Source of the DNA: Lentisphaeria bacterium
Lineage (GTDB): Bacteria > Verrucomicrobiota > Lentisphaeria > JABSQK01 > JAWLHB01
NCBI GenBank assembly: GCA_041690595.1
Contig: JAWLHB010000057.1
Location: forward strand, 1-45,643
Length of the DNA: 45,643 bases
Direction: 5' to 3'
Positions within the stretch are counted from its first letter, which is position 1, and every line of letters starts with the position of its first letter. A program made the translations under genes and the position numbers. Below are positions 269-44,880 of this stretch, one piece after another. The notes below the pieces were generated by a model. That model saw only the letters and a program-made list of their open reading frames with translations, searched no databases and was not told where the DNA came from.

Positions 269-871
269 ATGGGTACGGAGCCGCTGTTGCCGCCACATGG
301 CGGCTATCGCCGGATGCGGAGTTTTCAGGTGGCGCAACTGGTGTACGATGTGACGGTACGGTTCTGCGATCGGTATGTGGATCGGCGTAGCCGGACGCAT
401 GACCAGATGGTGCAGGCGGCACGGTCGGGGGTGCAGAATATTGCGGAGGGTTCGGAGGTGTCGGCGACTTCGAAGAAGATGGAGCTGAAGCTGACGCAGG
501 TGGCGCGGGCAAGTCTGGAGGAGTTGAAGCTGGATTATGAGGATTTTCTGCGCCAGCATGGTCTGCGCCAGTGGGAGCGGCAGGAGGGACTGCGGCAGGA
601 GTTGGTAGAGGCACGGCCGCGGACCGTGGATGAGGTGGCCAGTTGGGTGGCGGAGGCGGCGAGACGCCAGCGGTCGGCTGAGGGGAAAGGGGCGCCGGGT
701 GAGCTGTATCCTGAGCTTTCGGCGAATGCGGCGCTGACGCTGGCGACGGTGGCGGGGTACCTGCTGGATCGGCAGATCCGGGCACTGGGGGAAGGATTCG
801 AGGCGGAGGGTGGCTTCACGGAGCGACTGCATGGGGTACGGTCGGCCAAGCGGCGGCAGGGGATGGGGTAG
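269..871 (+). CDS. Four-helix-bundle protein (23S rRNA intervening-sequence protein / Avd-like family, TIGR02436-like) with a ~90-aa C-terminal suffix domain
   Basis: 200-aa ORF. The N-terminal ~110 aa carry motifs typical of the family (QNIAEGSE..., SLEELKLDYE). The C-terminal extension is Arg/Glu-rich. Confidence 0.7.
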   Translation: MGTEPLLPPHGGYRRMRSFQVAQLVYDVTVRFCDRYVDRRSRTHDQMVQAARSGVQNIAEGSEVSATSKKMELKLTQVARASLEELKLDYEDFLRQHGLRQWERQEGLRQELVEARPRTVDEVASWVAEAARRQRSAEGKGAPGELYPELSANAALTLATVAGYLLDRQIRALGEGFEAEGGFTERLHGVRSAKRRQGMG

Positions 872-915
872 CATGTCGGGGGCGGGAAGCTGGAGGCGGC
901 ATGTTAGGAGAGTGC

Positions 916-945
916 TTGACATGGGGTTTGGTTTGCTTCTATAGG
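916..945 (+). promoter_or_regulatory. Putative sigma70 promoter for the EncFtn-encapsulin operon: TTGACA at 916-921, 17-18-nt spacer, TATAGG at 940-945
   Basis: Near-consensus -35 hexamer and an A/T-rich -10 hexamer about 125 nt upstream of the 1070 start. The 13-bp palindrome TCGTGcgaCACGA at 965-977 lies just downstream. Confidence 0.4.
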
Positions 946-1069
946 TAGAAGCATTGGGTTCGCCTCGTGCGACACGAATAGAGAGTTGGGGAAGAGCGTG
1001 GGGCCAGAAGGGTCATGACGCGCTTGGAGCCCCGCTCGGAGGCGGCCGACACTTCAGCAGGAGTAGAGA

Positions 1070-1423
1070 ATGGAAACGGGATATCATGAAGAAGGTTTGT
1101 CCACCTTTGCGAAGGATCTTCATCGTGCACTGGTGAGTACGATGGAGGAGTTGGAGGCGGTGGATTGGTACAATCAGCGTATGGATGTGACGGGGGATGA
1201 GCAGTTGCGCAATATCCTGCGGCATAACCGCGACGAGGAGATCGAGCATGCCTGCATGATGCTGGAGTACCTGCGCCGGCTGATGCCAGAGTTCGATGAA
1301 CAGCTACGGACCTACCTGTTTACGGAGGCGCCGATCGAGCAGGTGGAAGAGCTGGCGGAATCGGGAGAAGGGGCTGACGTTGCCGCCGATCGCGGTTCTC
1401 TTCGCATCGGCAAGTTGAGTTGA
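1070..1423 (+). CDS. Encapsulin cargo: ferritin-like protein (EncFtn/Flp) with C-terminal cargo-loading peptide
   Basis: 117 aa. Contains an EEIEH (ExxH) di-iron motif region. The C-terminus ...DRGSLRIGKLS matches the family-1 encapsulin targeting-peptide consensus (GSLxIGxL). AGGAG Shine-Dalgarno 6 nt upstream. It sits immediately upstream of the shell gene. Confidence 0.85.
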   Translation: METGYHEEGLSTFAKDLHRALVSTMEELEAVDWYNQRMDVTGDEQLRNILRHNRDEEIEHACMMLEYLRRLMPEFDEQLRTYLFTEAPIEQVEELAESGEGADVAADRGSLRIGKLS

Positions 1424-1444
1424 AGATAAACAGGAGAGATCCAT

Positions 1445-2245
1445 ATGAGTATTTTGAAGCAGCACCTTGCCCCGATAACCGAAGGTGGGTGGGCAGAGAT
1501 CAATGAGCAGGCGAAGCGGACACTGTCGGCGAATCTGAGCGCTCGGCGCCTGGTAGATATCGTCGGGCCGCTTGGCTGGGAGGCGGCCGCGGTCAATCTT
1601 GGCAGACAGGATGTACAGGAAGGTGGTCCGGTAGCTGGTGTGCGCTGGGGAATCCGGAACGTGCAGCCGCTGATCGAGCTGCGGACGGCTTTCGAGCTGA
1701 ATATCTGGGATCTGGACGATGTCGACCGGGGCAGCAAAGTGCCCGACCTGGACTCGCTGGAGGAGGCGGCGCTGAAGACGGCGACCTTCGAGGAGCAGTG
1801 CATTTACCTTGGCTGCGAACAGGCTGGAATCAGTGGCTTGCTGGCGAGCAGCGGACATGACAAGCTGCCACTGGGCGAAAACATCGACGACATGCTGGTG
1901 AATATCGAAACGGCACTCTTTCGGCTTCATACGAGTGGTGTCGAAGGGCCGTATGCGCTCGTGCTTGGCGGACAGCCGTACCGGGAGTTGCTTTCGGGCG
2001 CGCCGGGCTGTTTCCCGATACGGCAGCGAGTACTTGACCTGCTTGGCGGCGGGGGCATCTACTGGAGTCCCGCGCTGCAGCAGGGGCTGGTGGTCAGCAC
2101 CCGGGGCGGCGACTTCGAGCTGACGCTGGGGGTGGACACCTCGATCGGCTACGAGAGCCACACGACGGAGATGGTGCAGCTCTACTTCACGGAATCGTTC
2201 ACCTTCCGGGTGCTCGAACCGAAGGCGGTCATCGCCTTCACGTAG
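1445..2245 (+). CDS. Family-1 encapsulin shell protein (HK97 fold, linocin_M18 family)
   Basis: 266 aa. It aligns along its whole length with the T. maritima encapsulin as I remember it (…HLAPITEGGWAEINEQAKR…, …GPLGWEAAAVNLG…, …GGDFELTLGVDTSIGYESHT…FTESFTFRVLEPKAVI…). AGGAGA Shine-Dalgarno 7 nt upstream of the ATG. Confidence 0.9.
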   Translation: MSILKQHLAPITEGGWAEINEQAKRTLSANLSARRLVDIVGPLGWEAAAVNLGRQDVQEGGPVAGVRWGIRNVQPLIELRTAFELNIWDLDDVDRGSKVPDLDSLEEAALKTATFEEQCIYLGCEQAGISGLLASSGHDKLPLGENIDDMLVNIETALFRLHTSGVEGPYALVLGGQPYRELLSGAPGCFPIRQRVLDLLGGGGIYWSPALQQGLVVSTRGGDFELTLGVDTSIGYESHTTEMVQLYFTESFTFRVLEPKAVIAFT

Positions 2246-2249
2246 GCGA

Positions 2250-2666
2250 TCAGGTGAGGCGCTCGCCGGTGGACGACATGGTGAGCGACGCGTGAATGAC
2301 GCCTCGCTGCTGCCCCAGGTGATTGACCAGGTGGCGCAGCGAGGTCGCCTTGCCGCGCGCGAGGATCATCTCGACGCACATTTCCTCGTTGAGGTGCACG
2401 TGGGTGGTGGCGAGGATGGAGTCGTGATGATGGTGCTGCAGCTCGGTCAGCTTCTGGCTGAGCATGCGCTGGTGATGGTTGTAGAGGAGGGTGATGGTGC
2501 CGACGACTTCAGCGTCGGCGTTCCATTCCTCGCGGACGAGTTGATCGCGGATCAGGTCGCGGAAGTACTCGGAGCGGTTTTCGTAGCCTTTCTCGGCAAC
2601 GAGTCGCTCGAGTTTTTCCTGCAAAGGTTTTTCGATGGACATGCTGAGGCGAACGAGATCTGACAT
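2250..2666 (-). CDS. nikR: Nickel-responsive transcriptional regulator NikR (RHH domain plus ACT-like metal-binding domain)
   Basis: 138 aa. N-terminal ribbon-helix-helix (RLSMSIEKPLQEKLERLVAEKGYENRSEYFRDLIR). Conserved HHHH plus downstream His/Cys ligands (…LQHHHHDSILATTHVHLNEEMC…). Confidence 0.85.
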   Translation of the reverse strand: MSDLVRLSMSIEKPLQEKLERLVAEKGYENRSEYFRDLIRDQLVREEWNADAEVVGTITLLYNHHQRMLSQKLTELQHHHHDSILATTHVHLNEEMCVEMILARGKATSLRHLVNHLGQQRGVIHASLTMSSTGERLT

Positions 2667-2676
2667 GGCGGCTCCG

Positions 2677-3147
2677 CTAGGACCGGCTTGTGCGGGTAGG
2701 CGACTTCTGCTTCAGTTCGACCAACAGCCACTTGCCCCCGCGGTATTCCCAGAGCATGGTGAGGTCCTGAAAGCGGTTTTCGGCGCCGGTGGCGTCGCCC
2801 CTGCGCATCTGGAGCATGAGGACAACCAGAATGGATTCCTTGTCGATTTCGCGCAGCTCGTCGACATGCAGAAAGATGTCGTTGGCCTTGGCTGCTTCCA
2901 GTTCGCCGAGGAACTGCTGGAGGCTGTTCTTGCCGAAGTTCCTGTTGTCTTCGTTGATGTAGCGGAAGTCAGCGGCAACGAGTTTGGCGGCGCGCTTCCA
3001 CTCTTTGTTGGAGAGCATGGCGCCGAAGTCGTTAAGGCGCGTGCGCAGCTGGCGCTCCCGAGAATAGAAAAGGGAGCAGCCCGGGAGGGTGAGGAGCAAC
3101 ATGGCAATGAGCAGATATGGAGTCAGGGAGTATGTGATGGTCTTCAT
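2677..3147 (-). CDS. Lipoprotein, probable NTF2/SnoaL-like fold, function unknown
   Basis: Signal peptide with lipobox LPGC. 156 aa. 4-nt overlap with the upstream hydrolase gene, so operonic. Confidence 0.55.
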   Translation of the reverse strand: MKTITYSLTPYLLIAMLLLTLPGCSLFYSRERQLRTRLNDFGAMLSNKEWKRAAKLVAADFRYINEDNRNFGKNSLQQFLGELEAAKANDIFLHVDELREIDKESILVVLMLQMRRGDATGAENRFQDLTMLWEYRGGKWLLVELKQKSPTRTSRS

Positions 3148-4052
3148 GGGTTCTCCTCGATCATCGCGTTGAGAGAATCAGCCAATTGGCGCTTCCATTC
3201 CTCGGAATAGAAGTTGTGGTTGGCTCCTGCGATAGTGGTCAGGTGCATAGTATAGTCGTTTTTCCGCTGGAAAGCTTCGAAATAGTCGTAAGAAGGCTGA
3301 AAATCCGGGTCGGCGTCACCATAGGTGATCTGGACGGGGATGGGGCGCAGGAGGAGTTTGTCCAGTGGTGACCGACGGGGTGGTTGGGGCTGGCTCTCGG
3401 GCTGCTCCTGCTGGAGGGCGTTGTCGGCCCGTCGTTTGTCCTTGCGGAATGGATTGGTGAGGACGCGCAGGACGCCGCCGTAGGATATCTCTCCCCGCAC
3501 GATCCGCTGCCAGGTACGCGGCTGCCAGAGCTTATCCCAGTAGAGCTTGAGAAAGTGAGCGGTGCGCCGGGCATCGCGGCTGAAGGAATCAGCCTCGCCA
3601 AAGGGGTAGACGGAGAGGAGCCACATGCCGGCGACCTCGGGCAGGCGGTCTATAATGCCGATGCCGACATTGCCGCCGGAGCAGATGCCGACGATCCAGA
3701 GCGGGCGCCGACCGAGGCGCGAAGCGAGAAAGCGGGCGGCGGCGACGGCATCGTCACCCATGTGCCCAAGGGTAATTTCCTCGGGGTCGAGGTCGCTTTC
3801 GCCTCTGCCGCGGAAGTCGAAGCGGAGGGAGGGGATGCCGGCGGCGGCAAGGTTGCGAGCGAGGTTGGTGAGGAGATTATGCGGGCCACCGCGGACGCCG
3901 CCCCAGCCGTGGAGAAAGAGGACCGCGGGAGCCTGACGTTCGCCGCCGCCGACCAGGTTGCCCTTGAGGGTATGCTGGCCAACGGGGATGCGCACGGCTT
4001 CTTCCCACATTCCCCGCGGCAGATCGAAGCGTTGCCGAAGCTGCATGGTCAC
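3144..4052 (-). CDS. Alpha/beta hydrolase (resembles exosortase-A-system-associated hydrolase 1 type)
   Basis: 302 aa. LFLHGWGG...LRFDFRGRGES N-terminal region and a nucleophile elbow near IVGICSGGNVG. 4-nt overlaps on both sides. Confidence 0.65.
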   Translation of the reverse strand: MTMQLRQRFDLPRGMWEEAVRIPVGQHTLKGNLVGGGERQAPAVLFLHGWGGVRGGPHNLLTNLARNLAAAGIPSLRFDFRGRGESDLDPEEITLGHMGDDAVAAARFLASRLGRRPLWIVGICSGGNVGIGIIDRLPEVAGMWLLSVYPFGEADSFSRDARRTAHFLKLYWDKLWQPRTWQRIVRGEISYGGVLRVLTNPFRKDKRRADNALQQEQPESQPQPPRRSPLDKLLLRPIPVQITYGDADPDFQPSYDYFEAFQRKNDYTMHLTTIAGANHNFYSEEWKRQLADSLNAMIEENP

Positions 4053-5278
4053 GGTGCTTTCACCGGGGGAGCCGGTGGATGATGCTTTTCGAGCCAGGAA
4101 TCCTGAATGACAAAGGCACGCCTGGCCGGCTCTTCCCCGGGATAGAGGACGAAGTTGTGGGAACCGCCGGGGATGATCTCATAGCGATAGGTCTTGTCGA
4201 GGGCCTGCAGGCGGTCAGTCAGGTCGTCATGGCTCTGGTGAAAGACGGAGCCATTGTAAGCGCCGCCCATGAAGAGGAGGAGTGGAGCCTGGATTTGTTC
4301 GGCATGATGAACGACGCTGCGGCGCATGAGGCCGCTCAGTTGCTCGGGAACGGTGCGCGCCTGCACGTACTGCTCCCAGGAGAGCCAGTTGTCCGCCCCG
4401 TCCCGGAGGCGGTCCCAGTAGTAACGAAAGGGATTGACCAGCCAGGCATCGTAGCTGACGACGCAGCTCACTTCCGAGGAACGGGCCGCGACCAGGAGTC
4501 CGACACCGGCGCCAAAGCTGTGGGCGAGAATGGCGAAGTCGCCCTCCCGGACGGAATCGAGTTTGCGGACGGCGGCGACCATGCCCAAGGCGTCGTTGAC
4601 TTCGCCATCGAGGTTTTCGATCTGGCCCTCACAGTGGTAATCCTGATCGAACTGCAGGTACTCCCTGCTGGCAAAGAGGGGCTCGCCGCGCAGGGCGGGG
4701 GCGGCGATGACGTATCCCCGGGCGGCGAGGCGCGAGAGCCACGGCAGGGAGTAGGCGGGAACGCCGAAGGCGGCACCATGGAGGTAGAGGATGAGCGGGT
4801 ACTTCCCTGGGGTCTCGGGTTCGAGGACGACGCCGTACTGGCGCAGGTTGTCGACGGAGAACTCGGCAACCCGGCAGCGGATGCCCGGAGCCGGTCGATC
4901 ATCAGGGCCGAAGAGGCGGGAGAGATCGGGGATGGGGACGGTTTCGCGCCACTCGAGGGTTACATCTGCAGGGTCGGGCGGCCAGGTGGTTTTCGGAAGG
5001 GGGGCGAGGTCTTCGAGGGAGGCCATGGCCTTGAGGTAAAGCTGGAGAGCTTCGCCGGCGTCGGCGGTTTCCGCGGCGAACCAAGCTTCGAGGGCCTCGG
5101 TAACGTCGAGTCCTTGCGCCATGGGGCGCTGGAGACGATAGGCGAGGTCGCGTTTGTAGGTCGTTCGGCGGGTATGGTCGGATTCGCCATACTGCCCGCA
5201 GGCGACGAAGGAGACAGCCAGGTTCAACAAGAGCGCCCTACCCCATGATTTGTTCGCCAAATGCGCCAACTTCACCAA
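4049..5278 (-). CDS. Secreted/lipid-anchored alpha/beta hydrolase (dienelactone hydrolase / S9-like esterase)
   Basis: 409 aa. N-terminal hydrophobic signal. LILYLHGAAFG and a nucleophile motif AHSFGAG. Confidence 0.65.
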   Translation of the reverse strand: MVKLAHLANKSWGRALLLNLAVSFVACGQYGESDHTRRTTYKRDLAYRLQRPMAQGLDVTEALEAWFAAETADAGEALQLYLKAMASLEDLAPLPKTTWPPDPADVTLEWRETVPIPDLSRLFGPDDRPAPGIRCRVAEFSVDNLRQYGVVLEPETPGKYPLILYLHGAAFGVPAYSLPWLSRLAARGYVIAAPALRGEPLFASREYLQFDQDYHCEGQIENLDGEVNDALGMVAAVRKLDSVREGDFAILAHSFGAGVGLLVAARSSEVSCVVSYDAWLVNPFRYYWDRLRDGADNWLSWEQYVQARTVPEQLSGLMRRSVVHHAEQIQAPLLLFMGGAYNGSVFHQSHDDLTDRLQALDKTYRYEIIPGGSHNFVLYPGEEPARRAFVIQDSWLEKHHPPAPPVKAP

Positions 5279-6053
5279 CGATCTCCTCGCTTGAGTGATG
5301 ATCCGTGCGTCCCCAGAAGGGTTTTTCGCGGACGGTTTTCAGGTTTCGATGCTCAGCGGCCTGGCAATGTTCCCCGATTGCGGCCCATTTGCCGGTCAGT
5401 TTTCTGGCGCCGCTGACGTGCAGCAGGAGCAGGGGCGATGCGGCAATGGGTTGCAGCTCGGAGATCAGGTCGAGAGCGCGCAACTGGCCGGCAAAGGCGG
5501 CGCCCATGCTGAAGCCGTCAAAATCGACGGGATGTCCGGCCGTCCAGGAGGATTCGGCGTCGTCGGCGATGCTGTTTGCCTTGCCTCCGCCCATCATCTC
5601 CTTGACCTGCTTGCGGCGCAGCAGCTCGTCGAGGTACTCGGCGCCGCTGACGAGAGGTTCGAGCAGGGCGATGCCATTGACGGGGGAATCGGCGGCGACT
5701 CGGGCGGCCATGAGGCCTCCCAGGCGGGCGCCAACGAGCAGGAGCGGACGGTCGGGAATCTCTTCGCGCACGTGACGGATGAGCAGGCGGGCATCGTCGA
5801 GCCAATCGTCGAGGGAGGCTTGGGCGAGGGAGCCGCTGCTTTCACCGGTTCCCCAGTAATCGAATCGGAGGGTGGCGATACCTGCCCGGGCGAGGTGGCG
5901 GGCCATGGTGTAGAGGAATCGGTAGGCACATTTGCGTTCTTCGCCGTAGGGGGCGAGGATGACGGCGGCGCCACGAACGACTCCGGCAGGCTGGTGCCAG
6001 GTGCAGTAGAGTTCGCCACGATTGCCTTTCATGTATCCGCTGACTTCTTCCAC
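5238..6053 (-). CDS. Alpha/beta hydrolase (resembles exosortase-A-system-associated hydrolase 2 type)
   Basis: 271 aa. VILAPYGEE...LRFDYWGTGES closely parallels the N-terminus of the 3144..4052 hydrolase. Probably the first gene of a 5-gene minus-strand operon that ends with nikR. Confidence 0.65.
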   Translation of the reverse strand: MEEVSGYMKGNRGELYCTWHQPAGVVRGAAVILAPYGEERKCAYRFLYTMARHLARAGIATLRFDYWGTGESSGSLAQASLDDWLDDARLLIRHVREEIPDRPLLLVGARLGGLMAARVAADSPVNGIALLEPLVSGAEYLDELLRRKQVKEMMGGGKANSIADDAESSWTAGHPVDFDGFSMGAAFAGQLRALDLISELQPIAASPLLLLHVSGARKLTGKWAAIGEHCQAAEHRNLKTVREKPFWGRTDHHSSEEIVGEVGAFGEQIMG

Positions 6054-6173
6054 GATTTCTACTCCCTGAATGTTGACGTGTGCAAGCGTACCCGCTTCCG
6101 GGCAAAAGGCAAGCGAGGGGGCAAGGATGAATCTCGGAAAGCACCTTGGCAGGGAGCAGCAGGTCGCCGCTCG

Positions 6174-6212
6174 GGCACGTTGCGGGGCCTGTCGAGGCTG
6201 AGCGTTTGAAGT
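6174..6212. repeat. Dispersed copy of the ~40-bp motif CAC(G/A)TTGC(C/G)GGGC(C/A)TGTCGAGGCT
   Basis: Matches the tandem pair at 6580-6660 when read directly. Confidence 0.6.
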
Positions 6213-6579
6213 TGAGCCTTAACAGAGGGATGGGCAAGGGCTTTGGGCTTTGACCACAAAGAACGCAGAGAGCGCAAAGCTCGAGCAGAGGGGACGCGGG
6301 GACGCCGTTCGGAGAGCGCCTCACTGACAGGTCCCGTAAAATTGAGCTCAGGCGGGCAGGAGTGTACGCCGTGGACGCAACCCCAAATGGGGTTGATGCG
6401 TGGGCGGGCAGTATACCCAGGGTAGCCCCAAGGGCAGCCCTGGACTATGAGACGCAGCCCCGTTGGGGCTAGGGCGAAAAGAGACGCCGGTTTCTGCGAA
6501 ATTGAGCTCAAGCGGGAGGATTGCATTGGTTTCGACTTATGAAGAAAAATGTCCGGCCAACGGCCGGGAGGGGACGCCC

Positions 6580-6660
6580 ACATTGCCGGGCATGTCGAGG
6601 CTAAGCCGGTGGGATAGCTATCACGTTGCCGGGCCTGTCGAGGCTGCACAGGTGGGATTA
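6580..6660. repeat. Tandem direct repeat (~40 bp x2) of the same motif, in the long intergenic region upstream of tRNA-Ala
   Basis: cacattgccgggcatgtcgaggctaagccggtgggata / cacgttgccgggcctgtcgaggctgcacaggtgggatta. A second short motif, AAATTGAGCTCA(G/A)GCGGG, is also present twice (about 6340 and 6501). Confidence 0.7.
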
Positions 6661-6770
6661 TTCTCGAACAGAAGCGTCAGGGCAACGAATAGCCGGGGAA
6701 CGGGTTGAAAAAAAGTGGATCGGGGTTGTTGAAAGTGTGGAGTGGGCGAGTAGTGTATAGGCGTTTTGGC

Positions 6771-6846
6771 GGGGCTGTAGCTCAGTTGGTAGAGCGATTG
6801 GTTCGCAATCAATAGGTCAGGGGTTCGACTCCCCTCAGCTCCACCA
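6771..6846 (+). tRNA. tRNA-Ala (anticodon CGC)
   Basis: Cloverleaf folded by hand. Acceptor stem GGGGCUG/CAGCUCC with the G3:U70 alanine identity pair. Anticodon loop UUCGCAA. T-arm AGGGG-UUCGACU-CCCCU. CCA is encoded. Confidence 0.93.
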
Positions 6847-26973: not shown

Positions 26974-27006
26974 TGTGTTTCAATCCTTTAAGCGAGGAAC
27001 CCTGCT

Positions 27007-28416
27007 GTGCGTCCACTGCGATACCTGTTCTGCCTGTTGGCCGCGTCGTGCTTTGGCACGGCACTGGCACAAGATACGAACGGCACCGGCGCACCGTCCG
27101 GCACCGACAAACGGTCCAGTCGCCAGACGCCGGTTACGAACGCCGTGGCCAAAGCCCTCCCATCGGTTGTGAATATCAGCACGGAGCGGATAATCTCGCA
27201 ACAATATCGCAGATATGGCTCCAATGATCCCTTTTCTGACTTTTTCAATCAGTACTTTGGCCCTTCAGAACGCCATTACAAGACCAATTCTCTGGGCAGC
27301 GGGGTGATCATTGACTCGTCGGGTTTGATCATCACGAATGACCATGTCGTGCAGCGGGCGTCGCGAATCCTGATCACTCTCGCCGATGGCACCAATCTGG
27401 AAGCAACGCCCGTCGCCACCGACGAGAAGAACGATCTCGCCCTCCTTCGCATCAATGAAGTGCCTCCCAGCCTGAAGCTGGTTGCCATCGAATTTGCTGA
27501 GCCGGATGATCTGATCCTCGGCGAGACGGTGATCACCGTCGGCAATCCCTTCGGGCTCGGGCAAAGCGTCGCAGCCGGAGTTCTCAGCGCGATCGGCCGG
27601 AAAGCGATTCATGAAGGCGACATTCTCTTCGACGACATCCTGCAGACGGATGCCGCCATCAACCCCGGCAACAGCGGCGGGCCGCTGGTCAATGTCAACG
27701 GCCAGATGATCGGCATTAACCTGGCGATTCAGCGCGATGCGGAAGGTATCGGCTTTGCGATACCGCTGAGGCGCATCGAGGACATCGTCTGCCACTGGCT
27801 GATACCCGAGCGATTCAATCAAGCCGACCTGGGGCTGGTGCCAGGCACCCGAAGTGCAAGCCCCGGCCAGGTTCAGGCCATCGTGGTCGAAGTGCGCCCG
27901 GAGAGTCCTGCCGCAAAGGCCGGGCTCAAGGAGGGCGATGTCATTCTTCGCGTCGATGGTGAAGAGGTGCAGCAGGGGCTGGTGGTCAGTCGACATCTCT
28001 GGCACCTGCAACCGGGCAAGAGCGTGAGCCTGGCGCTGGCCGACGGGCGTACTCTGGAAATCACGCTGGAGGTAATGCCCCGCCTGAGTGGTCCCGAGCT
28101 GGCGCGAGAGAGGTTGCAGGTCGAACTGCAGGAGCTGACCCCACGCCTCGCGAGCGCGCTCAAGTTGCCCTACTCCCGCGGACTGGTGGTGACCGACATC
28201 GAGGAGAAGGGAGTGCTCGGCCGCCGGGGCGTGATCAAGGGCGACGTCATCATTCAGGCCGGCGAAGTACCCGTCTCGGATTTCGGAGATTTCGCGCTGG
28301 CATTCGAGCATGTTCACGATGGCGATGTGATCGAATTGGTGGTGGATCGGGTGGTGGAGCGAGCGCGACATTACTTTTTACAGAGATTTGTTGTGGATAT
28401 CCCTTTCAGGCTGTGA
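27007..28416 (+). CDS. Periplasmic serine endoprotease DegP/HtrA family with two PDZ domains
   Basis: Signal peptide. Catalytic-triad motifs (TNDHVV, DLALL, GNSGGPLVN). GTG start. Confidence 0.9.
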   Translation: MRPLRYLFCLLAASCFGTALAQDTNGTGAPSGTDKRSSRQTPVTNAVAKALPSVVNISTERIISQQYRRYGSNDPFSDFFNQYFGPSERHYKTNSLGSGVIIDSSGLIITNDHVVQRASRILITLADGTNLEATPVATDEKNDLALLRINEVPPSLKLVAIEFAEPDDLILGETVITVGNPFGLGQSVAAGVLSAIGRKAIHEGDILFDDILQTDAAINPGNSGGPLVNVNGQMIGINLAIQRDAEGIGFAIPLRRIEDIVCHWLIPERFNQADLGLVPGTRSASPGQVQAIVVEVRPESPAAKAGLKEGDVILRVDGEEVQQGLVVSRHLWHLQPGKSVSLALADGRTLEITLEVMPRLSGPELARERLQVELQELTPRLASALKLPYSRGLVVTDIEEKGVLGRRGVIKGDVIIQAGEVPVSDFGDFALAFEHVHDGDVIELVVDRVVERARHYFLQRFVVDIPFRL

Positions 28417-28453
28417 ATTCGTTGCTATGTTAGGGTAACGGGAGATAGATACT

Positions 28454-28756
28454 GTGTTGAACCGAACCGCCTTGGCCATCCTGCTCTTCAGCTTGTTGGT
28501 TGCATTTGGCGCTTACCTTCTGGTTCCGACCATAAGTGAGCACCAGAAGACGAACCATGAATTGCAGCAGGCCAACCGCAAGCTGCTCGAGCACAAGGAA
28601 GAGAATCAGAAGCTGCGCAGCGAAATCCAGATGTTGAACAGTGACGCGCGTACCATCGAACGGGTGGCGCGAGACAAGTTCGGCTACGTCATGCCCAACG
28701 AGACGGTTTACGACTTCACCAAGCCCCTCCCCGCGCCGAAGCCTCGCATCCAGTAG
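28454..28756 (+). CDS. Cell division protein FtsB/DivIC-like (septum formation initiator)
   Basis: 100 aa with one N-terminal TM helix, a coiled-coil, and a C-terminal …RVARDKFGYVMPNETVY motif. Confidence 0.6.
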   Translation: MLNRTALAILLFSLLVAFGAYLLVPTISEHQKTNHELQQANRKLLEHKEENQKLRSEIQMLNSDARTIERVARDKFGYVMPNETVYDFTKPLPAPKPRIQ

Positions 28757-28793
28757 ACGCCGCCACATCGCGACAAGATCTGCTACTGATCGT

Positions 28794-28825
28794 TGAGCCA
28801 GCGCCGGCACTCGCCAACGCTGGCT
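28794..28825. terminator. Possible bidirectional hairpin between convergent ftsB-like and serA genes (9-bp stem GAGCCAGCG/CGCTGGCTC)
   Basis: Read directly. No clear U-tract on either strand. Confidence 0.3.
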
Positions 28826-28848
28826 CATGAAGTCAGCCTGCTCCCGGC

Positions 28849-30420
28849 TCAGATCTGCAGGTAAACGGCCTTTACAAAACCATCATGGGCAAGAATCTCG
28901 CCCAGAGCCTGATCGCTCACTGCCTTGTTGACCTTGAGTACCGCGAGCGAATTGCCGGTGCGAGGGTCGTGCGGTGAACGTATGTCTTCGATATTGACAT
29001 CATTGGCCGCCATGACCGACGTGATCTTTGCCAGCATTCCCGGACGATCGTTGTAGACAACGAGGACGCTGTGACCGGTGGGCTCGAAATAGAGCCGATC
29101 GAAGTTGTTGATGCGCGAGACCATGATGGCACCTTCCGCAATCGTACCGCGCACGCTGACACTGCTGAAGCTCTGGTCCTTACCTTCCAGCAGGTCGATG
29201 GTGATGGAGTTGCCATAGCCCTTGCTTTCGTCCGCCCCGCGGCTGACATGGGTGATCCCTTTCTCGCCCAGATAGTCGGTCGCCTGCTGATAGTCGAAGA
29301 ATGGGTCGAAATTGCTGGCCAACCCGAGCACGACAGGACCGAGCAACCAATTCTCGAACTGATTCAGATCGCCATAGAAGCTGGTCTCGATACGGCGCGG
29401 CTGTACCCCCTTCCCGAGGTAACCGCGGGCGATGCGGGTAAGATAGTAGGCCAGGAGCTGGTAGTTCTCGCTGAGACCTTCCGGAATACCGCGATTGACG
29501 ACGCAGGTGCTGATGCCGCGCTCGAAATAACCGACCAGTTGATCCGCCGCCCGCTTGGCGGCATTGAAGTTCGCTTCCTGCGTGTTGGCGCCAAGATGCG
29601 GCAACATGATGTCGGCGACATCCGCGACGCTCTTGGGGCCCGCTTCATCCTTGGGATAGACGTCGTTGCAGTAGATCAGCGACTTCGTCGCCTTGACGCT
29701 GCGAAGATCGGCCTCGTTGACCACGCCCGCGCGAGCGCAGTTCACCAACATGGCCCCGTCCTTCATCTGCTCCAGAACCGTCTTGTTGATCATGCCGCGC
29801 GTCTCCTCCGTCTCCGGAAGATGCAGAGACACAACGTCCGACCGCCCGAAAAGGTCGCTCAGCGTGCAAAGCTCGACATTGAGTTCTTCGGCGCGTCTGC
29901 TCGACAGAATGGGATCATAGGCGAGCACGGTCAATTCGAAGCCGTTCAGGCGCTTGACGAGGAGCTGCCCGATGTTACCGAGGCCGACGATGCCGATTGT
30001 TTTTCCGGCAAGCTCGCGCCCCATCAGCTTCTTCTTCTCCCACCCGCCGGCGCGAGTCGTCTGATCGCCGCGCACGACATGCCGGTAAGCGGCAAGAATG
30101 AGGGCGACCACCTCTTCGGCAACGGCGTTGGCATTGGCGCCCGGGGTGTTCATGACATCGACGCCCTGGCGCCTGGCGTGCTTGATGTCGATGGTGTTGA
30201 AGCCGGCGCCGGCGCGCACGACAAGGCGAAGATTGGGCAGCGCATCGAGGATGGCCTGGTCCACCTTTTCACTGCGGACGATGACAGCGGTGGTCTCTGG
30301 ATGACGCGCCACCAGCTCTCCAATAGGAGTGTCGGCATCCTGCACAACATCGTAGCCTTGGGCACGCAGGGTATCCGCCGCAACGGCATCCAGCTTTGTC
30401 GGGATCAGTACTTTACGCAT
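28849..30420 (-). CDS. serA: D-3-phosphoglycerate dehydrogenase with C-terminal ACT domain
   Basis: MRKVLIPTKLD… start chosen; the track ORF extends further upstream. NAD-binding motif GIVGLGNIGQ. 524 aa. Confidence 0.88.
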   Translation of the reverse strand: MRKVLIPTKLDAVAADTLRAQGYDVVQDADTPIGELVARHPETTAVIVRSEKVDQAILDALPNLRLVVRAGAGFNTIDIKHARRQGVDVMNTPGANANAVAEEVVALILAAYRHVVRGDQTTRAGGWEKKKLMGRELAGKTIGIVGLGNIGQLLVKRLNGFELTVLAYDPILSSRRAEELNVELCTLSDLFGRSDVVSLHLPETEETRGMINKTVLEQMKDGAMLVNCARAGVVNEADLRSVKATKSLIYCNDVYPKDEAGPKSVADVADIMLPHLGANTQEANFNAAKRAADQLVGYFERGISTCVVNRGIPEGLSENYQLLAYYLTRIARGYLGKGVQPRRIETSFYGDLNQFENWLLGPVVLGLASNFDPFFDYQQATDYLGEKGITHVSRGADESKGYGNSITIDLLEGKDQSFSSVSVRGTIAEGAIMVSRINNFDRLYFEPTGHSVLVVYNDRPGMLAKITSVMAANDVNIEDIRSPHDPRTGNSLAVLKVNKAVSDQALGEILAHDGFVKAVYLQI

Positions 30421-38422: not shown

Positions 38423-38698
38423 AAAAGATCGGTCGAAAGGTCGGTCCGTAAAACCTCGGTCCCACTTCCGAAAAGATCGGTCGAAAGGTCGGTCCATCGG
38501 CGCCACCCACTCGCGTCCGTTTCGTCCGTACACATCCCCGTCCCAGGAACGTCACGCCCTCCTGCTGCTGCATCGCTACCTCCCAAAAGATCGGTCGAAA
38601 GGTCGGTCCGCAAAACCTCGGTCCCACTTCCGAAAAGATCGGTCGAAAGGTCGGTCCATCGGCGCCACCCACTCGCGTCCGTTTCGTCAGACACATCC
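38423..38698. repeat. Duplicated ~115-bp element (copy 1 at 38423-38537, copy 2 at 38585-38698). Each copy has two 24-bp AAAGATCGGTCGAAAGGTCGGTCC motifs, giving four GGTCG-AAA-GGTCG direct-repeat sites in total.
   Basis: Read directly. The copies differ at 3-4 positions. Track ORFs 38295..38837 and 38335..38781 come from this repeat and are judged spurious. Confidence 0.85.
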
Positions 38699-39089
38699 GC
38701 GGCGCGCATCCCAAAGGCCATACTTCCCCTATTCCCATCCTTCCCTCTCCCGGGCATCCCACTACCCAAGCACGTTCCCACCCTTCATGACCTCTACATC
38801 TAACTATAAACATACACCCCCATAACCCAAAAGTCAAGCCCTAAAAACAAAAAGAGTACCCTTCCGCCCCGCCTCATGTAACATCCGTCCACGGACCGCG
38901 TCCACCAGGCGCCACATGCTCCGGGCTGCGTAGCTAATGGTTGTCGACAATCCGCTTCACCCCGGCTCGATAGCTGGCCGGGTCGACCGGCTTGCGCGTT
39001 GTCGCGTCAAGCTGCAAGCGTTGCGACTGGATGAGCCAGATAGCGATCCGAATATTGTCTCACCCGCCACACCATGTCCGACTTGTCCG

Positions 39090-39165
39090 ACTCGTCCGAC
39101 CACAGACCACCCCGCCTCCCCAGCGGGGACCGGGGCAGCTCCCCACCGATGGTCTCGCGTCCGCC
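39090..39165. repeat. REP-like GC-rich palindromic repeat, copy 1 (…ctcgtccgaccacagaccaccccgcctccccagcggggaccggggcagctcccc…)
   Basis: Shares the core CCTCCCCAGCGG(G/A)G(A/T)CCGGGGCAGC with the copies near 43011, 44289 and 44793. Lies immediately 3' of the 1251-aa gene. Confidence 0.75.
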
Positions 39166-42925: not shown

Positions 42926-43010
42926 GCTACTCCATCAATAGATGTCGCAGTTTGCAGATCCCTTTGCTACTATAGCGACACCTGCGGTCGCAGACCAGCA
43001 GAGTATCGAG

Positions 43011-43062
43011 TGGTCTGGGGAGGTGCTGCCTCCCCAGCGGGGTCCGGGGCAGCGCTCCGCGC
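43011..43062. repeat. REP-like palindromic repeat, copy 2 (GGTCTGGGGAGG-tgctg-CCTCCCCAG hairpin plus a GGGGC-agc-GCTCC hairpin)
   Basis: Read directly. Nearly identical to copy 4. Confidence 0.8.
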
Positions 43063-43098
43063 GTCGTGCAGATAGAAAAAGATGCTGCAAGCCGCACA

Positions 43099-44198: not shown

Positions 44199-44288
44199 TC
44201 TTTATTCAAGATTGTAGCTGCTTCGGCTGTCACTGACTTGCGTTGACATCGCCAACCATTCTCTCCGCCCCTTCCGACCCCGGCCGCC

Positions 44289-44365
44289 TCGTCCGACCAC
44301 AGACCACCTCGCCTCCCCAGCGGAGTCCGGGGCAGCGCCCCGCCGATCGTCCCCACGTCCCGTCC
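44289..44365. repeat. REP-like palindromic repeat, copy 3
   Basis: …ctcgtccgaccacagaccacctcgcctccccagcggagtccggggcagcgccccgccgatcgtcccc…. Confidence 0.75.
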
Positions 44366-44720: not shown

Positions 44721-44792
44721 CCTCGTCGCTGAGTTTCAACCCTACACTGTAGTCATCAGCATCATCGCTTGTCAAGCAACAAGACGTATCGA

Positions 44793-44880
44793 GGGGTCTG
44801 GGGAGGTGCTGCCTCCCCAGCGGGGTCCGGGGCAGCGCCCCGCCGATCGTCCCCGCGTCTCCGCGTCCCCGCGTCTCCCT
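44793..44880. repeat. REP-like palindromic repeat, copy 4
   Basis: …ggtctggggaggtgctgcctccccagcggggtccggggcagcgccccgccgatcgtccccgcgtctccgcgtccccgcgtctccc…. Confidence 0.8.

Follow-up and report, generated by a model that had tools for sequence, protein, structure and literature searches.

A probably self-contained EncFtn-encapsulin operon in a Lentisphaeria bacterium and the genes that adjoin it

The contig JAWLHB010000057.1 of a Lentisphaeria bacterium (assembly GCA_041690595.1), whose 45,643 nucleotides (nt) are referred to here as the window, carries close to its start a gene for an encapsulin shell, preceded by a gene for the ferritin-like cargo protein EncFtn. Upstream of this pair, on the same strand, lies a gene for a four-helix-bundle protein, and downstream, in convergent orientation, lies the gene of the metal-responsive regulator NikR, at the end of a hydrolase operon. 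A preliminary description of this DNA saw in the co-localisation of an encapsulin with a metal regulator, a hydrolase operon and an Avd-like protein something out of the ordinary. Do these neighbours have anything to do with the encapsulin, or do they simply lie next to it? Our answer is that positions 1070-2245 make up a self-contained two-gene family-1 encapsulin system, which its three neighbours abut by chance, and we give this reading a probability of roughly 0.9. The system consists of the following features.

1070-1423, plus strand: EncFtn cargo protein, 117 amino acids (aa); PF22277 EncFtn-like 125.9 bits, TIGR04535 140.3 bits (cutoff 125)
1394-1420, plus strand: putative targeting peptide GSLRIGKLS, residues 109-117, within the EncFtn C-terminus ...DRGSLRIGKLS
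1445-2245, plus strand: family-1 encapsulin shell, HK97 fold, 266 aa; PF04454 266.4 bits, NF041155 encap_f1 274.2 bits

The family profile scores of both proteins lie far above the curated cutoffs, and the shell is matched end to end (PF04454 over 1-253 of 253; NF041155 over 1-261 of 261, with a cutoff of 100), with neither the N-terminal extension of family-2 type nor a cyclic nucleotide monophosphate (cNMP) extension. When searched by sequence against the PDB, the shell finds the solved T=1 shells of Thermotoga maritima (3DKT, 2.5e-64) and Haliangium ochraceum (7ODW, 1.7e-59), and much more weakly those of larger cages, namely the T=3 shell EncA (approximately 4e-13) and a T=4 shell (approximately 1e-5). 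Because the likeness to T=1 shells is so much stronger than that to T=3 and T=4 shells, a T=1 cage of 60 subunits is predicted. EncFtn, for its part, aligns gap-free with EncFtn chains of known structure (1e-29 to 1e-23). The stop codon of the EncFtn gene and the ATG of the shell gene are 21 nt apart on the same strand, so that the cargo gene directly adjoins the shell gene; an AGGAG Shine-Dalgarno sequence stands 9 nt upstream of the EncFtn ATG, and the shell gene has an AGGAG of its own. The preliminary description had recognised here a complete family-1 encapsulin operon with EncFtn cargo, in which the 266-aa gene would encode an HK97-fold shell, and had proposed profile searches for both proteins; these returned the significant scores listed above, and the identification is supported at the level of profiles, sequences and individual residues. 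Indeed, all four open reading frames that it had described, those of the two flanking proteins included, lie where it had placed them, and every one of its family assignments was upheld.

How well is this two-gene arrangement kept elsewhere? A scan of genome contigs with the shell protein alone returned no relative, and the scan was rerun with an alignment of 37 shell sequences, which gave 80 loci in species-representative genomes of many phyla; together with the nearest shell relative, found on a metagenomic contig (L001) at 56% identity and having EncFtn and the shell only, the comparison comprises 81 loci. In 81 of 81 (tblastn), the shell gene is immediately preceded by that of EncFtn, in the same orientation. 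The six window proteins that were checked are each a singleton at 90% identity. Searches of PADLOC and PHROGs with the four-helix-bundle protein, EncFtn and the shell, and of PADLOC with NikR, gave no meaningful match.

The residues that matter for catalysis are also in place. The catalytic domain of EncFtn spans approximately residues 7-86 and is followed by an acidic linker and then by the C-terminal targeting peptide. Taking the metal-site residues of the Rhodospirillum rubrum protein from the literature (PMC5012862), whose residue numbers equal those of the window protein plus 5, one obtains the following correspondence.

Ferroxidase centre: Glu32, Glu62, His65 and Tyr39 in R. rubrum; E27, E57, H60 and Y34 in the window; all kept
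Entry site: Glu31 and Glu34, with Trp38, in R. rubrum; E26 and E29, with W33, in the window; all kept
Outer site: His57, Glu61 and Glu64 in R. rubrum; H52, E56 and E59 in the window; all kept

The profile matches and the gap-free alignment with the R. rubrum protein, in other words, identify an EncFtn fold with its di-iron ferroxidase residues.

The C-terminal tail deserves closer attention, since the preliminary description called DRGSLRIGKLS the canonical cargo-loading peptide. From the cargo C-termini of the 81 homologous operons we obtained the consensus (S/D)LGIG(S/K/N)L(K/R), which agrees with the published targeting-peptide consensus SDGSLGIGSLKRS, with its core LGIGxL (PMC8346489). The window tail GSLRIGKLS keeps the S, L, I, G, K and L of this pattern and has an Arg in place of the first Gly of LGIG. 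This position is Gly in nearly all cargos of the set, and Asn or Ala in several; because natural cargos thus depart from Gly at this very position, we read the change to Arg as a variation of the motif rather than as a failure to match it, and SLRIGKLS is, judging from its fit to the consensus, a putative variant targeting peptide. The earlier claim, therefore, holds insofar as the tail is present and fits the consensus, and the word canonical is slightly too strong for a peptide whose near-invariant first Gly is an Arg. No other open reading frame of the window was found to end in a targeting-peptide-like tail, as an additional cargo might.

It is instructive to set the operon beside systems that have been characterised. 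The EncFtn-encapsulins of R. rubrum and H. ochraceum (5DA5, 7OE2/7ODW; PMC5012862, PMC8791618) have the same gene order, in which EncFtn precedes a shell of approximately 265 aa, ferroxidase, entry and outer-site residues that are all identical to those found here, and likewise an acidic linker followed by the targeting peptide. The window system differs from them in its tail, SLRIGKL instead of SLGIGSL, and nothing in public data exceeds 56% identity with its shell. The T. maritima encapsulin (maritimacin, 3DKT), which has an Flp cargo, is the best-scoring solved shell and aligns over residues 1-264; the tail of its cargo, GGDLGIRKL, likewise differs from LGIGSL in having an Arg, which however replaces the second Gly there (LGIRKL) and the first Gly here (LRIGKL). 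The operon belongs to the well-described family-1 Flp/EncFtn encapsulin class, of which it shows all testable defining features, and it leaves the understanding of encapsulin compartments unchanged. What it adds is a further family-1 EncFtn system, divergent in sequence and from a little-sampled lineage, probably of the PVC group, as well as a targeting peptide with a natural change of Gly to Arg, of possible interest to those who engineer cargo loading.

By analogy with the characterised homologues, from which our picture of assembly state, cargo loading, iron mineralisation and regulation is drawn, the compartment would work as follows. EncFtn would form annular decamers, at whose dimer interfaces the di-iron ferroxidase centres would arise. 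The C-terminal peptide GSLRIGKLS would dock in a pocket on the lumenal side of the shell protein and in this way package the decamers while some 60 shell subunits build the icosahedral T=1 cage. Fe(II) would then pass through the pores of the shell and be oxidised by EncFtn, the ferric mineral being laid down in the lumen, so that the compartment would serve iron storage and protection against oxidative stress. The operon would be expressed from a promoter of its own in the 198-nt spacer that precedes it, possibly under the control of some regulator that acts at a palindrome there.

With the system itself identified, one can turn to the sequences around it, which are listed here in the order in which they lie in the window, those of the minus strand with their start first except for NikR.

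269-871, plus strand: four-helix-bundle suffix-domain protein, 200 aa; TIGR04258 4helix_suffix 63.3 bits (cutoff 40), TIGR02436 34.5 bits (cutoff 24)
916-953, plus strand: candidate promoter/operator of the EncFtn-shell operon, with TTGACA at 916-921, a weak -10 element CTATAG/TATAGG at 939-945, and a palindrome
934-953: the perfect palindrome TGCTTCTA-TAGG-TAGAAGCA, overlapping the -10 candidate; two 8-nt arms around 4 nt (8-N4-8), with 8 of 8 positions of the inverted repeat complementary
2250-2666, minus strand: NikR, 138 aa; NF003381 150.9 bits (cutoff 105), PF08753 NikR_C 95.7 bits, PF01402 RHH_1 22.2 bits
3147-2677, minus strand: DUF4440/SnoaL-like protein, whose LPGC signal resembles a lipobox, followed by nikR
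4052-3144, minus strand: alpha/beta-hydrolase
5278-4049, minus strand: alpha/beta-hydrolase
6053-5238, minus strand: alpha/beta-hydrolase
6649-6059, minus strand: unknown protein, 196 aa, first gene of the nikR operon

Is any of these neighbours a regular companion of the encapsulin? The preliminary description had suggested assessing the conservation of the neighbourhood across related genomes, and the result is that the EncFtn-shell pair alone is kept. Namely, the four-helix-bundle protein, NikR, the DUF4440 protein and each of the three hydrolases were found by tblastn, within approximately 6 kb of the shell, at 0 of the 81 loci. On all the evidence available, the adjacency to the four-helix-bundle gene, to NikR and to the hydrolase operon is coincidental rather than the mark of a conserved system, and we judge the flanking features to be independent units that probably do nothing more than abut the encapsulin operon. 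The co-localisation that had seemed unusual, including that with the four-helix-bundle protein, is in our reading mere adjacency and constitutes no new encapsulin context.

The spacer between the four-helix-bundle gene and the EncFtn gene (872-1069, 198 nt) probably contains a promoter that belongs to the EncFtn-shell operon itself, at the TTGACA and -10-like elements listed above. The palindrome at 934-953 is a candidate operator and may be bound by some regulator. Its pattern has a single exact occurrence in the window, alongside four matches with 3 mismatches each, and the palindrome was not found upstream of the 81 other EncFtn operons; an alignment of the upstream regions with those of the four nearest PVC-type loci likewise revealed no conserved block. 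The preliminary description had pointed to 872-1069 as the place to look for a NikR or Fur box, and the consensus scans found none there, the unique palindrome with its 8-bp arms being all that the spacer offers. In particular, neither Fur and PerR boxes, within the limits used, nor any of four NikR operator consensuses had an acceptable match in the spacer, and the four NikR patterns had no match within 4 mismatches in 850-1100 or 6040-6780, so that no NikR box is recognisable near the encapsulin operon or in the window, with the proviso that these are general literature consensuses, which may not be the motifs of this lineage. At the RNA level, the fold of the putative 5' untranslated region (925-1075) is unexceptional (z = -1.3), and Rfam at its gathering thresholds detects a tRNA-Ala and no riboswitch or leader in 872-1069.

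Could it still be that NikR regulates the encapsulin operon, either by binding in the spacer or through interference or antisense effects of convergent transcription, and thereby ties nickel sensing to an iron compartment? The geometry of the junction invites the thought. The shell gene stops at 2243-2245 and nikR at 2250-2252, which leaves 4 nt between the two stop codons, and each transcript must consequently end inside the other gene. The operon had been described as ending 5 nt from the nikR stop; the genes are indeed convergent and their stops abut, the gap being 4 nt. Moreover, the plus-strand RNA of 2215-2345, which is antisense to the 3' end of nikR, is unusually stable (-68.2 kcal/mol, z = -4.2, with 0 of 200 shuffles as stable), and it has no U tract; it may be a 3' end structure for either of the convergent transcripts. 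The nickel site of NikR is also intact: H78, H89, H91 and C97 align with the His/His/His/Cys of the Helicobacter pylori and Pyrococcus horikoshii proteins, residues whose nickel-site roles we take to be established, and among PDB NikR chains the matches range from 2e-34 to 4e-22. That said, the scans just described, within the limits of their literature consensuses, give no NikR, Fur or PerR match in the spacer, the 8-N4-8 palindrome is unlike the widely spaced half-sites of NikR, and NikR is missing from all of the other EncFtn-shell loci. The chance that NikR controls the operon is, in our estimate, very slim.

What is more, NikR has a context of its own, as the preliminary description had correctly noted in calling nikR the last gene of a hydrolase operon: on the minus strand, the order is the 196-aa open reading frame, the three hydrolases, the DUF4440 gene and nikR, with overlaps of 4 nt or very short gaps between neighbours and a promoter-like site (6685-6657) ahead of the first gene. 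The hydrolases show a similarity, below the cutoffs, to exosortase-associated hydrolases 1 and 2, and the DUF4440/SnoaL-like protein probably carries a lipoprotein signal, judging from its lipobox-like motif. The closest NikR homologue, 74% identical (L102), is preceded by homologues of one hydrolase (hyd2, 77%), another hydrolase (hyd1, 58%) and the DUF4440 protein (37%), and is followed by unrelated genes, and the next closest, 72% identical (L103), is preceded by a DUF4440 homologue; the synteny extends over 2250-6649 (minus strand) in the window, 1-2463 in L102 and 73-968 in L103. There is no encapsulin on either of these two contigs. As the order hyd2-hyd1-DUF4440-NikR in the former and DUF4440-NikR in the latter is kept in the absence of an encapsulin, we judge that NikR belongs to the hydrolase/DUF4440 operon as a conserved unit and not to the encapsulin system.

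This by-product of the analysis, a NikR that closes an alpha/beta-hydrolase/DUF4440 operon and is conserved in this position, deserves mention in its own right. The NikR proteins of P. horikoshii (2BJ1), H. pylori (2CA9) and Escherichia coli (1Q5V) have the same ribbon-helix-helix (RHH) and NikR_C domains and the same aligned His/His/His/Cys site. Compared with them, the window protein differs in being encoded by the terminal gene of such an operon and not beside a nickel transporter, a hydrogenase or a urease, none of which was found in the window. One would not ordinarily expect a nickel regulator in a hydrolase/DUF4440 operon. As a side observation, Planctomycetota are among the named NikR matches, and a DUF1559 protein adjoins the closest shell relative.

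The four-helix-bundle protein upstream raises a question of the same kind, namely whether it is an accessory of the encapsulin, such as a chaperone, a secondary cargo or a regulator, transcribed together with it. The preliminary description had placed a protein of the 23S intervening sequence (IVS)/Avd family with a suffix domain directly upstream on the same strand, and this was borne out: the TIGR04258 suffix domain, with its 63.3 bits, occupies residues 148-196 on a TIGR02436 bundle (34.5 bits), PF05635, at 31.7 bits, narrowly misses its gathering score of 33.8, and an alignment of the protein with 39 homologues exposes a conserved GGFTERL motif. The AlphaFold2 model (pLDDT 86.7, pTM 0.80) has its bundle helices at 17-36, 42-64, 69-96 and 143-179 and a terminal helix at 183-198, with two short helices (107-138) inserted between the third and the fourth helix of the bundle. 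A PDB search with the sequence returned nothing, and the best folds, 2GSC and 2RLD, surfaced through the fold search alone, with target-normalised TM-scores up to 0.82 (0.81-0.82 for 2GSC) and a probability of 1.00 at an E-value of only 0.055. The likeness to the 2GSC/2RLD family (TIGR04258/TIGR02436, known as 23S rRNA IVS or 'S23 ribosomal protein') is one of scores above the NCBIfam cutoffs and of a predicted bundle that superposes on 2GSC. A literature search on the function of TIGR04258 or four-helix-bundle suffix proteins returned essentially nothing.

It is the distribution of this family that bears most directly on the question. The search for homologues gave more than 8000 matches, with identities of 61-75% to the window protein in Desulfobacterota, Lentisphaerota and a large number of metagenomic lineages, and the family is conserved over an N-terminal part of approximately 125 aa and a C-terminal part of approximately 50 aa, between which lies a hypervariable linker rich in S, T, G and Q. 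Of six sampled clusters, three lie inside type I restriction-modification (R-M) operons, where the stop codon overlaps the start of hsdR, one stands beside an hsdR fragment in a toxin-antitoxin/IS66 island, and two are solitary, as is a copy on a Prevotella plasmid. Among 80 further metagenomic loci, at least 20 have type I R-M genes nearby, and EncFtn, the shell or NikR occur at 0 of the 80; altogether, no encapsulin was found beside a homologue in these 80 and 13 other loci, and the same holds for the loci of the six clusters and of the plasmid (the sampled loci are L005-L014, L095-L101 and L106-L185). The window gene differs from these relatives in that the gene that follows it is EncFtn and not hsdR, the linkage to hsdR (at least 20 of 80 loci, 3-4 of 6 clusters) being frequent and not defining, and in that its variable linker is unusually short. 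In a DNA-level alignment with the closest relative (L003), the open reading frame aligns and its flanks do not, as expected of a self-contained gene cassette. No second copy was found in the window.

Returning to the accessory role, one can cite for it that the gene precedes the operon by 198 nt in the same orientation and that no convincing terminator separates the two, the sole candidate having 3 G-C pairs and a poor tail. At the same time, the protein has no targeting-peptide-like tail, the spacer offers a TTGACA with a -10-like element behind it, conservation against the closest relative is confined to the coding sequence, and homologues are never found beside an encapsulin, whether one starts from the four-helix-bundle protein or, conversely, from the 81 shell loci. 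For these reasons, we consider such a role very improbable. Four-helix-bundle suffix genes are a promiscuous and highly conserved family whose members are solitary or lie within type I R-M operons. The family is almost unstudied, and its repeated placement immediately ahead of hsdR might point to an accessory role in type I restriction-modification, a speculative reading to which we attach little probability. The extreme conservation of the TIGR04258 family and its frequent occurrence within such operons are a second by-product of this work.

A different function that could be proposed for this protein is that of Avd, the accessory protein of a diversity-generating retroelement (DGR), which would then lie next to the encapsulin. 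There is kinship, since the protein is a four-helix bundle of the PF05635/cd16375 superfamily by its TIGR02436 score and its 2GSC/2RLD fold (TM-score up to 0.82), and Avd is a relative of the PF05635/TIGR02436 superfamily (PMC10053308). However, no reverse-transcriptase domain was found in the large open reading frames scanned across the 45.6-kb window, nor any pair of template and variable repeats, the Avd structure 4DWL is absent from the top 50 fold matches of the model, and the architecture with a TIGR04258 suffix is, elsewhere, solitary or part of type I R-M operons. We have accordingly rejected a DGR Avd here and attach hardly any probability to it; the term 'Avd-like' used in the preliminary description remains apt for the fold and the superfamily, and misleads if it is taken to mean a DGR component. 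To our knowledge, no function of the four-helix-bundle family is known outside the Avd proteins of DGRs.

Would our conclusions be different if the comparison reached closer to the organism at hand? Four points weigh against the reading of 1070-2245 as a self-contained system, and they should be considered together. First, the promoter candidate at 916-953 falls short in a sigma-70 consensus scan, which leaves room for co-transcription with the upstream four-helix-bundle gene. Second, the targeting peptide has an Arg where nearly all homologues have a Gly, and the loading of the cargo is a prediction drawn from its sequence. Third, the comparison comprises no genome of the same genus or family, the nearest shell being 56% identical, and a link to the neighbours that is specific to this lineage would, formally, escape it. 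Fourth, 268 nt of contig precede the four-helix-bundle gene, and any context beyond them is hidden. One can imagine, in this vein, a lineage-specific circuit that couples nickel status to the iron compartment through a regulator at the palindrome and through head-on transcription with the structure at 2215-2345; we give it a slim chance. It is our belief that the self-contained two-gene operon, whose order is kept throughout the homologous loci and whose neighbours are not, describes the locus best.

As to the contig end itself, positions 1-148, at its very start, form an array in which the 9-bp unit GACGCAGTG is perfectly repeated 16.4 times. This tandem repeat is probably the place where the assembly broke, and the sequence hidden beyond it could be, for example, a type I R-M operon.

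The remainder of the window also encodes a protein with an N-terminal methylation motif, a GH95 protein and a TonB-dependent receptor; together with the DUF1559 protein beside the closest shell relative and the Planctomycetota among the named NikR matches, these genes point to a bacterium of the PVC group. Over its first 27 kb or so, the GC skew runs from +0.1 to +0.38 and then falls to as low as -0.34, whatever the orientation of the genes; the switch, near 27000-30000, looks like one of replication-terminus or origin type, or else like a chimeric join. Finally, a GC-rich repeat of approximately 65 nt that contains CCTCCCCAGCGGGGnCCGGGGCAGC is present in four copies in the last 7 kb (39087-39154, 43003-43067, 44284-44351 and 44784-44851), and a direct repeat of 104 nt, 99% identical, in two copies 162 nt apart (38423-38526 and 38585-38688).

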